Source: a virus
DNA length: 64,000 nt
IMG/VR virus record: IMGVR_UViG_3300046779_002131
Coordinates: 1-64,000 of that record
Reading direction: 5' to 3' (one strand)
This document shows, in pieces, positions 1 to 3,151 of the stretch. Under the pieces are notes generated by a model, which had not been told where the DNA came from, searched no databases, and saw only the letters and a program-made list of their open reading frames with translations. A program made the translations under genes and the position numbers. The stretch's first letter is position 1; each line of letters opens with the position of its first letter.

Positions 1-3
1 GCT

Positions 4-32
4 ATTATTACACACAAATTTTATTGTGTCAA
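4..32 (-). promoter_or_regulatory. putative sigma70-type promoter firing leftwards out of the window
   Basis: Minus strand TTGACA-N17-AATAAT. Confidence 0.5.
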
Positions 33-40
33 CTATTTTT

Positions 41-116
41 TGGTGGAGAAGAACGGGTTCGAACCGATGACCTTCTGCTTGCAAAGCAGTTGCTCTCCCA
101 ACTGAGCTACATCCCC
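41..116 (-). tRNA. tRNA-Ala(UGC)
   Basis: 76 nt cloverleaf GGGGATGTAGCTCAGTTGGGAGAGC...TTTGCAA...GGTTCGAACC...CCACCA; G3:U70 Ala identity pair; encoded CCA. Confidence 0.95.
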
Positions 117-146
117 TGTGTCTGGTGTTACTAATTTATTATAAAT

Positions 147-230
147 TGGTGGGCAGGGAGAGACTCGAACTCTCACACCTTTCGGCATCGGCTTCTAAGA
201 CCGACATGGCTACCATTACATCACCTGCCC
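147..230 (-). tRNA. tRNA-Leu(UAG)
   Basis: 84 nt; acceptor GGGCAGG/CCTGCCC, anticodon loop CTTAGAA, long variable arm, T-loop GTTCGAG, encoded CCA. Confidence 0.93.
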
Positions 231-667
231 AATTTTTCTTTCCATTTATCTTTTATTGCTTTTGCAATTTTTGCTTTATGTTCTTCTGACTTGGCTTTGC
301 CTGTATTAGCCTTTCCACCGGCGCTTTTATTACCTTTACCTTGCATTCGGCGAGCTTCATCAATTCCGTATTTTTTTACAGTTTTGTCCCAGACAGTTGT
401 GCCATAATATTTTTCTCTGTCAACAGCATTTTCACTAGGAGTCCCCCAGTACAAATGATTAGGATTGCTACATTGTCCATTATTACAGGCATGACAAACA
501 TGTATTTTTTTACCTGAAGGTATTGTGGTTTCAAGTATATGAGCTAACAATCCTTTGAGATACATGCTTTGACCGCCTCTTTCAATGCACGGTTCATCGA
601 GTTTTAAGTGGGATTGTCTGTTTACTTGTGGTAGTAAAATATATTCATAAATGTTCTTCATGTACAT
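221..667 (-). CDS. HNH homing endonuclease with C-terminal NUMOD3-like basic DNA-binding motif
   Basis: HVCHACNNGQCSNPNHLYWGTPSEN HNH motif; KSEEHKAKIAK tail. Start moved to ATG at 667, just after CATAAATA, because the longer ORF runs through structured non-coding sequence. Confidence 0.8.
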   Translation of the reverse strand: MYMKNIYEYILLPQVNRQSHLKLDEPCIERGGQSMYLKGLLAHILETTIPSGKKIHVCHACNNGQCSNPNHLYWGTPSENAVDREKYYGTTVWDKTVKKYGIDEARRMQGKGNKSAGGKANTGKAKSEEHKAKIAKAIKDKWKEKLGR

Positions 668-788
668 ATTTATGGTAGACACGCTGTTTTGTTTACCATT
701 TCGCCATATTGAAACACACTCGTACCCACCAGAGAATCTTATTCTTACCCAGCAGAGAATGTGCTTTAATATGGTCCCAATATCAAGC

Positions 789-817
789 ATTATAAACAAA
801 TACCCAATATTGGTCAA
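789..817 (-). promoter_or_regulatory. sigma70-type promoter upstream of HNH/tRNA genes
   Basis: TTGACC-N17-TATAAT. Confidence 0.7.
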
Positions 818-823
818 CCATAT

Positions 824-941
824 GTTGGGGTCGACACCCCAACCAGGAGTCTTACCGTCTGCGTTGCCTCCACAGACTTCATGTATCCTGTCCGCCCGTT
901 CGCAGCATGTTTAGAGTGCGCTGCCAGGTCCTCGTTACCTG
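824..941 (-). ncRNA. candidate structured non-coding RNA (unknown class)
   Basis: Helices CAGGT/ACCTG, GCAGCG/TGCTGC, CAGGA/TCCTG enclosing GTCTGT/GCAGAC, and GTTGGGG/CCCCAAC; G-U pairs favour the minus strand; GC-rich relative to flanks. Confidence 0.5.
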
Positions 942-954
942 CACACTGTGCATT

Positions 955-1089
955 TTACACTCTTTTCAAGAGTTTAAATTGCCTCATTTGTTCGATTTGA
1001 TGTTGCGCTCGTTTTAACTTTTCCTCAATTAACTTTTGTAACTGCTCTGGAGTCAAAACAAACGTTTCATCGCTAGTTTTGGCTTTCAA
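955..1089 (-). CDS. small hypothetical protein, 44 aa (MKAKTSDETFVLTPEQLQKLIEEKLKRAQHQIEQMRQFKLLKRV)
   Basis: TTG start preceded by SD-like AGAGGT; helical/coiled-coil-like composition; below the ORF-track size cutoff. Confidence 0.55.
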   Translation of the reverse strand: MKAKTSDETFVLTPEQLQKLIEEKLKRAQHQIEQMRQFKLLKRV

Positions 1090-1101
1090 TTTTTTACCTC
1101 T

Positions 1102-1140
1102 AAAAACGAAACACCCTGGAGTTTCTAGTTCCAGGGTGCC
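1102..1140 (-). terminator. intrinsic terminator (possible attenuator)
   Basis: Stem GCACCCTGGA/TCCAGGGTGT with 9-nt loop, followed by TTCGTTTTT. Confidence 0.75.
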
Positions 1141-1166
1141 TTGAATATATATCTACGTGCTAGACG

Positions 1167-1289
1167 TTATTCTTGACACCCCCGACAATCCTCGCGACTA
1201 TTAATTGTCTGGGCTGATTGCCAAAAGAGTGGCATCCCCTGATAATTAGGCTTGGTCGCTGCACAAATTGTGGAATGTATGTGTTTCAT
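1167..1289 (-). CDS. putative 40-aa leader peptide MKHIHSTICAATKPNYQGMPLFWQSAQTINSREDCRGCQE
   Basis: Open frame ATG(1289) to TAA(1167) downstream of a CATAAATA motif; last codons overlap the 5' arm of an antiterminator helix. Confidence 0.5.
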   Translation of the reverse strand: MKHIHSTICAATKPNYQGMPLFWQSAQTINSREDCRGCQE

Positions 1290-1365
1290 AGTTTGTCAAT
1301 TATAAGTTTATTTATGATTGCGGTCAAGTGATTTTTAAAAATTTTGGTGAAATTAGTCAAAAAGT

Positions 1366-1968
1366 TTACATCACCGGACCGTTACCATTTTTAAAGCCCA
1401 CCGATCCACCTTCTGCTGCTATACGTTTGATTACATCTTCAAACAAGATAGGAGCAAAGTCTGTCTGCTCTACACATACGCAATGATAACGAGTATCAAT
1501 CTCGTCACTGTATAATGTAGCACCTGTTTGGGCATCAACTCCACGAGCCTTCTTTACACGGCTGGCGTGCAAGTGTCCGTGTATGTTAGTACCAAATCTG
1601 CCTAAACTTGCTTCATGTACAGGAATATGACTTAGTATCATTCCATTCATGACATGATATGCACGTAGTTCGCGGAAGTACTGGTTATATTCTGTATCAC
1701 GGAAGATGTCGTGGTTACCACGTATAAGCACCTTGTCACCGTTTAAACGAGCCAACGTGTTCATTGCACGACGGTTAATAACTACATCACCTAGGTGGTA
1801 AACTTTATCGTTAGGACGAACTCGTTCGTTCCAAGCTTTGATCATGAACTCATCCATCTCCTCGGGATCGTCCCATGGGCGTAATTTAGTAACACCATCT
1901 TCACGCATGAAGCGGCAAACGCCGGCATGTCCAAAATGCGTGTCGCTTACTAGAAATACTGCTGGCAT
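1366..1968 (-). CDS. calcineurin-like metallophosphoesterase
   Basis: SDTHFGH, HLGDV, RGNHD and HGHLH motifs; SD AAGGAG. Confidence 0.9.
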   Translation of the reverse strand: MPAVFLVSDTHFGHAGVCRFMREDGVTKLRPWDDPEEMDEFMIKAWNERVRPNDKVYHLGDVVINRRAMNTLARLNGDKVLIRGNHDIFRDTEYNQYFRELRAYHVMNGMILSHIPVHEASLGRFGTNIHGHLHASRVKKARGVDAQTGATLYSDEIDTRYHCVCVEQTDFAPILFEDVIKRIAAEGGSVGFKNGNGPVM

Positions 1969-1996
1969 AGTCGCTCCTTTCCTTGGTTAATTGAGA

Positions 1997-2155
1997 TTAT
2001 TTTGCAGTCATAATTTTAGGGTCGGCTTGATTTTTGACTTTTTCAACCACACCACCTGCAGCAAGAAACGCTGCCACCGCTTGTTCTGTTGTTAATTCTG
2101 ATTGCTGAAATTGCGCTTTGACATTGCTTTGTTTGGTAAATTTTGGTTTAAACAT
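1997..2155 (-). CDS. small hypothetical protein, 52 aa (MFKPKFTKQ...FLAAGGVVEKVK...)
   Basis: Open frame with SD AAAGGA, directly downstream of a sigma70 promoter. Confidence 0.6.
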   Translation of the reverse strand: MFKPKFTKQSNVKAQFQQSELTTEQAVAAFLAAGGVVEKVKNQADPKIMTAK

Positions 2156-2183
2156 AATATCCTTTTGTTATTTACTATATAGC

Positions 2184-2212
2184 ATTATACTAAAATGCCA
2201 CTTTTTGGTCAA
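2184..2212 (-). promoter_or_regulatory. sigma70-type early promoter
   Basis: TTGACC-N17-TATAAT. Confidence 0.75.
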
Positions 2213-2238
2213 CCAGTGTTGAGTCGCTAAAATAACAA

Positions 2239-2442
2239 CTAAATTCTCCGCTTTTTCCAATCATAGCCCGGGCCAGTTTCTGTTACACCAAAGTCTCCCA
2301 CCATGTCAGCCTGTTCGCTGCACATTGTTACATACTTTGCATTATTTCTTCTCAACCACTGACAATAATTGAGAGCTTCAGTCATGTCCTCAAATTCCTT
2401 ACCGTAATTGCTGCCACTCATTGTCCAATATACTTTAAACAT
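2239..2442 (-). CDS. hypothetical protein
   Basis: ORF downstream of promoter; fits gene packing. Confidence 0.65.
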   Translation of the reverse strand: MFKVYWTMSGSNYGKEFEDMTEALNYCQWLRRNNAKYVTMCSEQADMVGDFGVTETGPGYDWKKRRI

Positions 2443-2468
2443 GGTTCATTTTTCTTTATTAAAATACA

Positions 2469-2497
2469 ATTATAGCAATTTTACAATTAATGGTCAA
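2469..2497 (-). promoter_or_regulatory. sigma70-type early promoter
   Basis: TTGACC-N17-TATAAT with TG extended -10. Confidence 0.75.
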
Positions 2498-2853
2498 CGA
2501 GCAAGACTTTGTATGTATTTTGCTAAGTCTCCGTAAAGACCAGCCATCATTGCGTCGCGACTGCCAAAGAAACTGATGGTCTTTTTGGGATTGAGGTAAT
2601 ACGGTGTTTGTACACCACGGTCCAATCGCAGCAGCATCATTTTGGTAAATGGTTGATTGGATGGCACGTTGTAGGTGTAGTGTTCAAGTTCGGCTAACCG
2701 AGCAAACACAAAGAAACCTTGATCGGTTAATCTAAGTCCACCATTGCGTCGAAGATTTTGCCACCAAATTTTCAGTGCATCATCAATTTCAATTTGATGT
2801 TCCGGGGGAATTACTGCCAGTACTCGTTGGGTAAATTCAACTTTGAGATTCAT
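2494..2853 (-). CDS. hypothetical protein
   Basis: ORF overlapping the end of the upstream gene. Confidence 0.7.
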   Translation of the reverse strand: MNLKVEFTQRVLAVIPPEHQIEIDDALKIWWQNLRRNGGLRLTDQGFFVFARLAELEHYTYNVPSNQPFTKMMLLRLDRGVQTPYYLNPKKTISFFGSRDAMMAGLYGDLAKYIQSLAR

Positions 2854-3151
2854 TGGGGAATATCCTTTCCCCGGCAGTGAGCAGCACTACGCTGAACTTG
2901 TCAGTCTTGAACTGATTGTTGAGTTTGCGAGCCAAATTAATGGCATGTCCCGGATTACTAAAACTTACCTTTTTATACTTAGGTCCCGGAAACTGCTGCA
3001 ACATATTTGAGGTTTTGAGATTAATCGGAGCATTGTCAAAAAACACTGCCCATATTCCTTCAGAGGCCAACACCTGCTCAGTCTTGTAAGTGGTCTTGTT
3101 GGTAAGTTCAACTAATACTTTAGGTTTGGGTCTAGACAACGGATTCTCCAA
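2837..3151 (-). CDS. hypothetical phage protein
   Basis: ORF after TAAATA motif; true start may be TTG near 3139 (SRPKP). Confidence 0.7.
   Translation of the reverse strand: MENPLSRPKPKVLVELTNKTTYKTEQVLASEGIWAVFFDNAPINLKTSNMLQQFPGPKYKKVSFSNPGHAINLARKLNNQFKTDKFSVVLLTAGERIFPNESQS

Follow-up and report, generated by a model that had tools for sequence, protein, structure and literature searches.

The window, by which we mean the whole 64,000-nt stretch of DNA analysed here, comprises the first 64 kb of an IMG/VR virus contig that is 97.5 kb long and has a CheckV completeness of 28%. Because related contigs reach 350–380 kb, the source is taken to be a freshwater jumbo phage, and its nearest cultured relatives, as judged by the flap exonuclease, are Pseudomonas phage PA5oct and its kin (53% amino-acid identity). 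Near the start of the window, downstream of a metallophosphatase gene, lies a module with the minus-strand order promoter, ORF1, antiterminator hairpin, terminator, ORF2, structured ncRNA and tRNAs (Table 1).

Table 1. Coordinates of the module and of its neighbouring genes in the window
Feature	Position	Strand	Remarks
Metallophosphatase gene	1968-1366	minus	
σ70-type promoter TTGACC-17-TATAAT	1327-1299	minus	11/12 consensus matches
ORF1, candidate leader peptide	1289-1167	minus	40 codons plus UAA stop (1169-1167)
Antiterminator 5′ strand CGGGGGUGUCAAGAAUA	1184-1168	minus	last five ORF1 codons plus two stop-codon bases
Antiterminator apical stem-loop GUCUA-GCACG-UAGAU	1165-1151	minus	
Antiterminator 3′ strand UAUUCAAGGCACCCUGG	1147-1131	minus	pairs with CGGGGGUGUCAAGAAUA
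Intrinsic terminator	1140-1102	minus	11-bp stem, 9-nt loop, U-tract tail
Terminator 5′ arm	1140-1130	minus	
Terminator loop	1129-1121	minus	
Terminator 3′ arm	1120-1110	minus	
Terminator tail UCGUUUUU	1109-1102	minus	
ORF2	1089-955	minus	44 aa, TTG start; GAGG Shine–Dalgarno (1100-1097) directly after terminator tail
Conserved structured ncRNA	947-700	minus	GC-rich; 5′ domain 947 to ~885
Second σ70-like promoter TTGACC-17-TATAAT	817-789	minus	consensus match only; within variable ncRNA insertion
HNH endonuclease gene	664-221	minus	
tRNA-Leu(UAG)	147-230	minus	start of tRNA array
tRNA-Ala(UGC)	41-116	minus	array interrupted by contig end

ORF1 encodes the 40-residue product MKHIHSTICAATKPNYQGMPLFWQSAQTINSREDCRGCQE, which uses 19 amino-acid types (only Val is absent) and 31 distinct sense codons, ATA and CGG included, as the original prediction had described. 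The same prediction regarded this near-complete set of amino acids as a special feature of the leader, a claim that does not hold, in that 6% of random 40-codon pieces from the phage's long genes have at least 19 types. Its accompanying caveat, that codon diversity is not far from random expectation, was justified as far as the diversity of amino acids is concerned.

The −10 hexamer of the ORF1 promoter ends 9 nt before the ATG, implying a leaderless or nearly leaderless mRNA, and no Shine–Dalgarno sequence precedes ORF1 in the window. The predicted transcription start leaves about 3 nt before the AUG; with no Shine–Dalgarno sequence in that interval, translation of ORF1 may be inefficient. 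At the other end of ORF1, the intrinsic terminator is present where it had been placed, with a folding energy of −17.6 kcal/mol. A simple terminator scanner missed it because the 9-nt loop exceeds the limit of 8 nt set in the scanner. In addition, the second σ70-like promoter, already noticed in the original prediction, is indeed found as a consensus match, and is not seen at the same place in the relatives inspected. This promoter-like site could allow independent expression of the tRNAs of the window, a point that counts against reading the element as an attenuator.

A module family at the head of tRNA arrays

Searches of cultured phages by megablast and blastn gave no DNA match to the element. 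The 80 closest loci, fetched via the neighbouring phosphatase, share only the phosphatase gene with the window, and the region is mosaic. A single one of these 80 loci, L062, carries the module, at another place. Its layout comprises a promoter abutting the ATG, an ORF of 36 codons, a terminator preceded by a sequence complementary to its arm, and an RNA that resembles the GC-rich stretch of the window. A pattern derived from the L062 RNA, CACUnnAAACAUG..AACGGGCGG, matches at least 119 IMG/VR contigs. Among the matches listed, a hairpin followed by a U-tract lies upstream of the ncRNA in 105 of 121 loci, and all but one of those 105 contain an ORF of 28–61 codons that ends 14–31 nt before the terminator arm. 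Removal of duplicates leaves 84–88 distinct modules among the matches listed, carried by IMG/VR contigs of related jumbo phages.

A covariance model, R1, built from 55 relatives with the window excluded, matches positions 1102–1195 of the window with 35.5 bits (E = 3.7e-6), and this is the sole significant match in the 97.5-kb contig. By this model the copy in the window is a member of the family. It is a divergent member, which explains why nhmmer with this copy alone gave only three relatives. Model R1 has no match in Pseudomonas phage PA5oct. An exact terminator pattern retrieved two unrelated GC-rich phages, which were discarded. Rfam yielded no match for the element or the ncRNA in positions 1–3000 of the window at E ≤ 1, and neither a T-box nor any other Rfam family matches the element; when the Rfam leader families were applied to a relative, the best was Thr_leader, with 24.1 bits versus a gathering score of 55.

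The comparison of homologues indicates that the reading frame of ORF1 is maintained, while its peptide is only loosely constrained. Specifically, the frame is open and begins with ATG in 88 of 88 distinct homologues, versus 3 of 88 for the +1 frame and 0 of 88 for the +2 frame. The pN/pS ratio of ORF1 is 0.72, compared with 0.35 for the adjacent ORF2 in the same analysis, and substitutions are spread nearly evenly over the three codon positions of ORF1 (1295/1119/1417) but are biased to the third position in ORF2 (1315/907/2077). An open frame around a loosely constrained peptide is the pattern expected of a leader peptide. The expectation of a divergent peptide in a conserved frame is thus borne out for the frame and for the weakness of the constraint, but the peptide does not diverge freely. 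The ORF1 peptides align as one family with a near-universal Trp and an (N/Y)-D-R or I-R-G motif, to which the peptide of the window conforms, and the conserved Arg is encoded by CGC or CGT in 65 of 71 cases, with AGA/AGG common elsewhere in ORF1. Furthermore, the body of ORF1 folds below mononucleotide shuffles, with a median z of −2.2. The bias in Arg codons and the structured body suggest that conservation acts partly at the RNA level and that the RNA may have another role; this, together with the possibly inefficient translation of ORF1, counts against attenuation. Neither ORF1 nor ORF2 has a family match in Pfam or PHROGs.

The codons of ORF1 are poorly adapted, with a codon adaptation index of 0.633 in the window and a median of 0.650, compared with 0.770 for random gene segments (5th percentile 0.691). 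Runs of regulatory codons are absent from ORF1 among the aligned homologues. A proposed correspondence between the leader codons and the downstream tRNA array was rejected: the fraction of leader codons that the array can read is 0.62, equal to the 0.62 background of ordinary genes, and is higher in the leader in 19 of 41 loci. With neither codon runs nor a match to the array, no specific signal is evident, which counts against attenuation. On the comparative evidence ORF1 appears to behave as a leader peptide, and we infer that it is translated; if it is a sensor, it would be a general one, in which poor codons and the structure of the RNA within the ORF might act as brakes.

Promoters that abut the start codon recur in the family. 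At least 17 of 88 modules, the window included, have a promoter with 9 or more of 12 consensus matches directly before the ATG, and the distance from the end of the −10 hexamer to the ATG is 6–10 nt, mostly 7 nt. Another subfamily carries TAAATA, then 7 nt, then ATG, and the remaining modules have A-rich leaders with weak GGAA-type sites. From these spacings, many copies of the module are predicted to be leaderless or nearly leaderless, and a leaderless start would couple the loading of the ribosome to the emergence of the 5′ end of the RNA.

Downstream of the terminator, ORF2 occurs in roughly half of the homologous modules, where it shows the conserved motif L(T/S)xEQxxKLIxxKxERA. The 5′ domain of the ncRNA contains the invariant loops AACGAGG, CACUnnAAACAUG and AACGGGCGG. 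Its helices P2 and P3 are 96–98% paired, with 235 two-sided changes versus 71 expected, and the slid controls collapse. The 3′ limit of the ncRNA is uncertain; by homology it extends to the helix 774–761/717–704. A likeness to the P2–P4 region of RNase P RNA was considered and dropped, as none of the RNase P models in Rfam matches and the presumed P4 strand has a local pairing partner. In keeping with the original prediction, which placed the element in front of a tRNA region, a same-strand tRNA array follows the ncRNA in 82 of 82 loci for which 1.5 kb or more of sequence is available downstream, and it has as many as 22 tRNAs within 3 kb and as many as 34 within 12 kb. At 24 loci or more, 35–60 nt separate the end of the terminator arm from the ncRNA motif, and this motif is itself positioned about 45 nt inside the ncRNA. 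The ncRNA of these loci thus starts within a few nucleotides of the U-tract and leaves no room for a promoter, so that these ncRNAs and arrays are reachable only by read-through. It follows that in at least 24 loci the terminator must be passable.

Competing hairpins at the end of ORF1

In the window, the end of ORF1 and its stop codon pair with a segment that includes the 5′ arm of the terminator, in agreement with the original prediction. The pairing between CGGGGGUGUCAAGAAUA and UAUUCAAGGCACCCUGG appears whether the local region or the nascent transcript is folded; specifically, when the 97 nt around the stop codon are folded, GGGGGUGUC..GAAUA pairs with UAUUC..GGCACCCU. Nine nucleotides (1140–1132) are common to the terminator 5′ arm and the antiterminator, and the two helices therefore compete, as had been proposed. 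The antiterminator hairpin is the more stable of the two (−22.6 versus −17.6 kcal/mol). The full-length minimum-energy fold of the RNA from the window contains the terminator but not the antiterminator, which counts against the interpretation of the element as an attenuator.

The same arrangement of upstream ORF, antiterminator and terminator, likened beforehand to the trp, his and pheM attenuators, is conserved in the homologues. For each of 84 distinct homologues we folded the transcript as far as the last base of the terminator 5′ arm, and in 82 of the 84 nascent-transcript folds this arm pairs with the end of ORF1. The duplex between the arm and the upstream 75 nt has a mean energy of −15.0 kcal/mol, compared with −7.2 kcal/mol for shuffles (median z −3.65, 84 homologues), and in 74 of 84 homologues at most one of 50 shuffles equals the energy of the arm duplex. 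For 61 control terminators from the same contigs, the corresponding duplex has −6.8 kcal/mol and a z of −0.14. Among the homologues, 5–13 nucleotides of the arm (median 8) are common to the antiterminator, and in 81 of 84 the antiterminator exceeds the terminator in stability, with medians of −25.1 and −16.1 kcal/mol.

The two strands of the helix change together. There are 76 distinct helix variants among the 84 homologues, for example GGGUCC/GGACCC, GGGGUUUCAUA/UAUGAAACCCC, CGGCUUCC/GGAAGCCG and GAGGAUUGAAUAA/UUAUUCAAUCCUC, with GGGGGUGUC/GGCACCCU in the window. In a model-based alignment of 72 copies, 79.3% of cells are paired, versus 72.2% in shuffles, and two-sided changes occur in 83 cells, versus 29 expected. 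The covariation score of this alignment, which was fitted to the structure, is 0.355 versus 0.215; none of 500 shuffles reaches it and slid controls score lower. Runs of G and C blur the register in the 72-copy alignment, such that 77.9% of cells remain paired after the partner is slid by +1. When the main subfamily is aligned with MAFFT alone, 73.4% of cells are paired, versus 72.4% in shuffles, a +1 slide is equally good, and the pair count is indecisive because of this one-base ambiguity of register. RNAalifold on a MAFFT alignment of all subfamilies gave no structure because the strands are misaligned.

The position of the stop codon relative to these hairpins is also maintained. It lies within the antiterminator hairpin in 84 of 84 homologues, so that the comparative check proposed for related phages finds the stop codon retained there along with compensating changes in the helix. 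The first paired base of the hairpin is 7–38 nt (median 23) before the ORF1 stop, the antiterminator 3′ strand begins 11–27 nt (median 19) past it, and the U-tract ends 57–73 nt past it. Taken as sequence evidence, the pairing statistics indicate that the antiterminator is real and specific to the module. We identified no anti-antiterminator of the 1:2 type, that is, no helix overlapping the antiterminator 5′ strand, and no pause site.

A proposed ribosome-operated switch and its alternatives

We propose that the element is probably a ribosome-operated transcription attenuator that heads a phage tRNA operon. In the proposed mechanism, host RNA polymerase would initiate at the promoter abutting ORF1 and transcribe ORF1, whose last 5–8 codons and stop codon would serve as the 5′ strand of an antiterminator of about 55 nt, while the 3′ strand of this hairpin would double as the 5′ arm of the terminator. 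As long as no ribosome has closed in on the polymerase, the transcript would fold the antiterminator, and polymerase would continue into ORF2, as the first product of read-through, and then into the ncRNA and the tRNA genes. The antiterminator precedes the terminator in transcription and surpasses it in stability, so that an untranslated transcript should read through.

In contrast to an untranslated transcript, one with a lead ribosome at the end of ORF1 as the 3′ arm of the terminator emerges would keep the antiterminator 5′ strand unpaired. About 15 nt to either side of a stop codon are covered by a ribosome that has this codon in its A site. At the ORF1 stop, such a ribosome would thus keep the 5′ strand and the apical loop from pairing and leave the terminator arm free; its footprint would stop just short of the arm, the terminator would form and transcription would end. 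A separate anti-antiterminator would be unneeded because the ribosome would take that part. Slow or failing translation, over initiation and about 40 codons of elongation, would thereby yield more ncRNA and tRNA.

An unlikely alternative is that the element is an independent gene for a small RNA or small protein. The gene would specify a stable, dual-function transcript of about 190 nt; ORF1, as a fast-evolving protein, the RNA, or both would act in trans, the pairing of the arm would be the mature fold, and the downstream genes would be expressed by leakage or from promoters of their own. The parts of a dual-function small RNA are present: a promoter of its own that directly abuts ORF1, a structured RNA, a small ORF and a strong terminator after it. 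The whole transcript folds below shuffles (z −3.46 in the window, −6.7 in L062), in keeping with the structured ORF1 body, and the recurring Trp and (N/Y)DR motif of the peptide, together with the promoter found between the terminator and the ncRNA in some loci (L084, L093 and L109, for example), likewise favours such a gene. The trans-acting attenuator RNA and leader peptide rnTrpL/peTrpL of Sinorhizobium meliloti provide a precedent (PMC7298713). However, a competing hairpin that in nearly all homologues is stabler than the gene's own terminator would weaken termination and is hard to explain without regulation, and ordinary terminators in these phages have no such hairpin. In addition, the loci with the ncRNA right after the U-tract need read-through, and the pN/pS ratio and poor codon usage of ORF1 argue against a conserved protein function. 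A small-RNA or small-protein gene is also compatible with attenuation and does not exclude it.

We regard as improbable a switch that is real but set by a factor other than the ribosome, such as temperature, an RNA-binding protein of the phage (ORF2 is one possibility) or of the host, or an RNA, whether a tRNA or some other, that binds the structured ORF1 region in the manner of a T-box, with ORF1 translated for another reason. The conserved RNA structure of the ORF1 body and a nucleotide motif, (G)AUCGC, which coding does not explain, point toward such a factor, and feedback would be possible in the roughly half of loci where ORF2 immediately follows the terminator. Against this stand the absence of ORF2 from about half of the modules, the lack of a T-box or other Rfam match, and the combination of an open frame with ATG in every homologue, a stop codon always inside the hairpin and a narrow range of distances to the arm, features that a ribosome-operated switch would require and a factor-operated one would not. 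It is very improbable that a small gene and its terminator, both ordinary, make up the element and that the complementarity is a by-product of G-rich codons near the stop: the outer helix (GGGUCC/GGACCC) varies little in the main subfamily and the MAFFT pair count hardly departs from its shuffles, but matched helix variants occur across subfamilies and the energy excess over shuffles and control terminators is large.

If the element is a ribosome-operated attenuator, as we favour, it may further be a general gauge of translation capacity, a proposal that we advance tentatively and consider possible rather than probable. The whole tRNA array and the ncRNA would then be switched on only when host translation falters, possibly through anticodon-nuclease defences, depletion of tRNAs after host shut-off, or starvation. 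The ribosome would act as the anti-antiterminator, a leaderless start would set the timing, and the module would constitute a self-adjusting counter-defence circuit.

Relation to known attenuators and inducible tRNA arrays

In enterobacterial attenuators, the terminator is favoured once a ribosome reaches the leader stop, and read-through is favoured when the ribosome lags behind. Like trpL, hisL, thrL, leuL, pheL, ilvL and the pheM leader of pheST, the phage module has a short leader ORF, an intrinsic terminator and an overlapping alternative hairpin. It differs from them in several respects. Specifically, it has no runs of regulatory codons, its leader has 35–60 codons and often begins right at the promoter without a Shine–Dalgarno sequence, and the genes that would be regulated are those of an ncRNA and tRNAs rather than of biosynthetic enzymes. 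Furthermore, only two competing helices are found in the phage module, and with no 1:2-type anti-antiterminator an untranslated phage transcript is predicted to read through and not to super-attenuate.

General impairment of translation, the inducer proposed here, has a parallel in Bacillus subtilis vmlR, whose upstream ORF lies in an anti-antiterminator hairpin, so that stalling there frees the antiterminator (PMC9226507). The phage module resembles vmlR and other ABCF resistance genes (PMC9226507) both in this respect and in having an upstream ORF within alternative structures before a terminator. Unlike in vmlR, the 3′ end of the phage ORF is itself a strand of the antiterminator, and the hosts, regulated genes and sequences are unrelated.

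The trn operon of Anabaena sp. PCC 7120 is a long, supernumerary and horizontally mobile tRNA array that is induced by translational stress (PMC8421152). HNH homing endonuclease genes adjoin such arrays, as the HNH gene of the window does. In contrast to the phage module, the trn operon resides on a bacterial megaplasmid and is controlled by a DNA-binding repressor, TrcR, which acts on direct repeats in the promoter (PMC10272220), and neither an attenuator nor a leader or terminator is mentioned where the operon is described (PMC8421152). In the rnTrpL/peTrpL system, the attenuator-terminated RNA is functional and the leader peptide acts in trans (PMC7298713), which offers a precedent for a second role of the structured 190-nt ORF1 RNA; the two have no sequence relationship.

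Full-text literature searches found no paper that joins a leader-peptide attenuator to tRNA genes, and the Anabaena trn operon was the only inducible tRNA array found in print. There is a long-standing debate over why phages carry tRNA genes, and to our knowledge almost nothing is known about the regulation of phage tRNA arrays. Phage tRNAs can replace host tRNAs that are cut by defence nucleases (PMC10264068, PMC11464382, PMC11555353). The module draws attention to a widespread structured ncRNA as one of the co-regulated components in the translation toolkit of phages, and the model could be tested on the natural variation of the family, which has 84 distinct copies, a two-helix logic, a loosely constrained peptide and many starts predicted to be leaderless. 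A leader-peptide switch before the array, if true, would mean that phages gauge translation directly and supply tRNAs on demand, and would extend trp-type attenuation to RNA genes and to viruses.

A structured ncRNA separating the probable attenuator from the tRNA array

Comparison of the window with related contigs reveals a conserved structured ncRNA, which is present in at least 119 IMG/VR contigs, where it follows the attenuator and precedes the tRNA array. It matches no Rfam family. The ncRNA is roughly 200–260 nt long, exceeding the 118 nt of the original prediction. Helices P2 and P3 show strong covariation, and the loops AACGAGG, CACUnnAAACAUG and AACGGGCGG are invariant. Helix P1 (AGUGUG/CGCACU), a possible pseudoknot, is invariant in sequence and for that reason counts as no more than a candidate. 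In the 3′ half, a long helix (GUAUUAAAGCA.../...UGCUUUAAUAC) encloses a variable insert.

In five related loci (L124, L150, L152, L159 and L186), the first gene 3′ of the ncRNA is a tRNA with a long variable arm and the anticodon GUA (Tyr). The 5′ end of this tRNA is called later by ARAGORN than the alignment implies, and the boundary between the ncRNA 3′ end and the tRNA 5′ end is therefore approximate.

Features in and around the module in the window
Feature	Position	Strand	Remarks
HNH homing-endonuclease gene	221-664	(-)	between ncRNA and first tRNAs
Promoter-like site, consensus	789-817	(-)	within variable insert of ncRNA
Structured ncRNA, conserved	947 to about 700	(-)	relatives, e.g. L062:1600-1800
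ORF2, 44 aa	955-1089	(-)	strong Shine-Dalgarno directly 3′ of terminator
Spacer motif ATAAATAAAC	1305-1321	(-)	also in homologous promoters of L103, L119, L145, L186 and others
52-aa ORF	1997-2155	(-)	good Shine-Dalgarno

Protein-coding genes in and near the module

ORF2 belongs to a family that is found in about half of the modules, the homologous copies in related contigs, and carries the conserved motif L(T/S)xEQxxKLIxxKxERA, with a pN/pS of 0.35. Searches of Pfam and PHROG returned no family match for ORF2 except a sub-threshold match to BssS. ORF2 might share its regulation with the tRNAs; alternatively, it might act on the switch. The 52-aa ORF gives a sub-threshold Pfam match to the SutA RNA-polymerase-binding domain (PF20661; 21 bits, cut-off 29.3), and its product is possibly a small protein that modulates the RNA polymerase of the host. 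HNH genes are reported to adjoin tRNA arrays in the cyanobacterial L-arrays as well (PMC8421152).

Promoter spacer and placement of the cassette

Promoters abutting the leader peptide ORF (ORF1) have in common the motif ATAAATAAAC, located between the −35 and −10 hexamers. This similarity suggests that the motif is an additional element for recognition, or that the promoter-leader cassettes have a common origin.

The placement of the attenuator-ncRNA-tRNA cassette relative to the conserved metallophosphatase gene differs among phages. Specifically, the cassette lies downstream of this gene in the window (1094-1330) and 2.4 kb upstream of it in L062 (1380-1600), while in 78 other loci it is absent within 4 kb of the gene. 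This varying position marks the cassette, or its surroundings, as mosaic.
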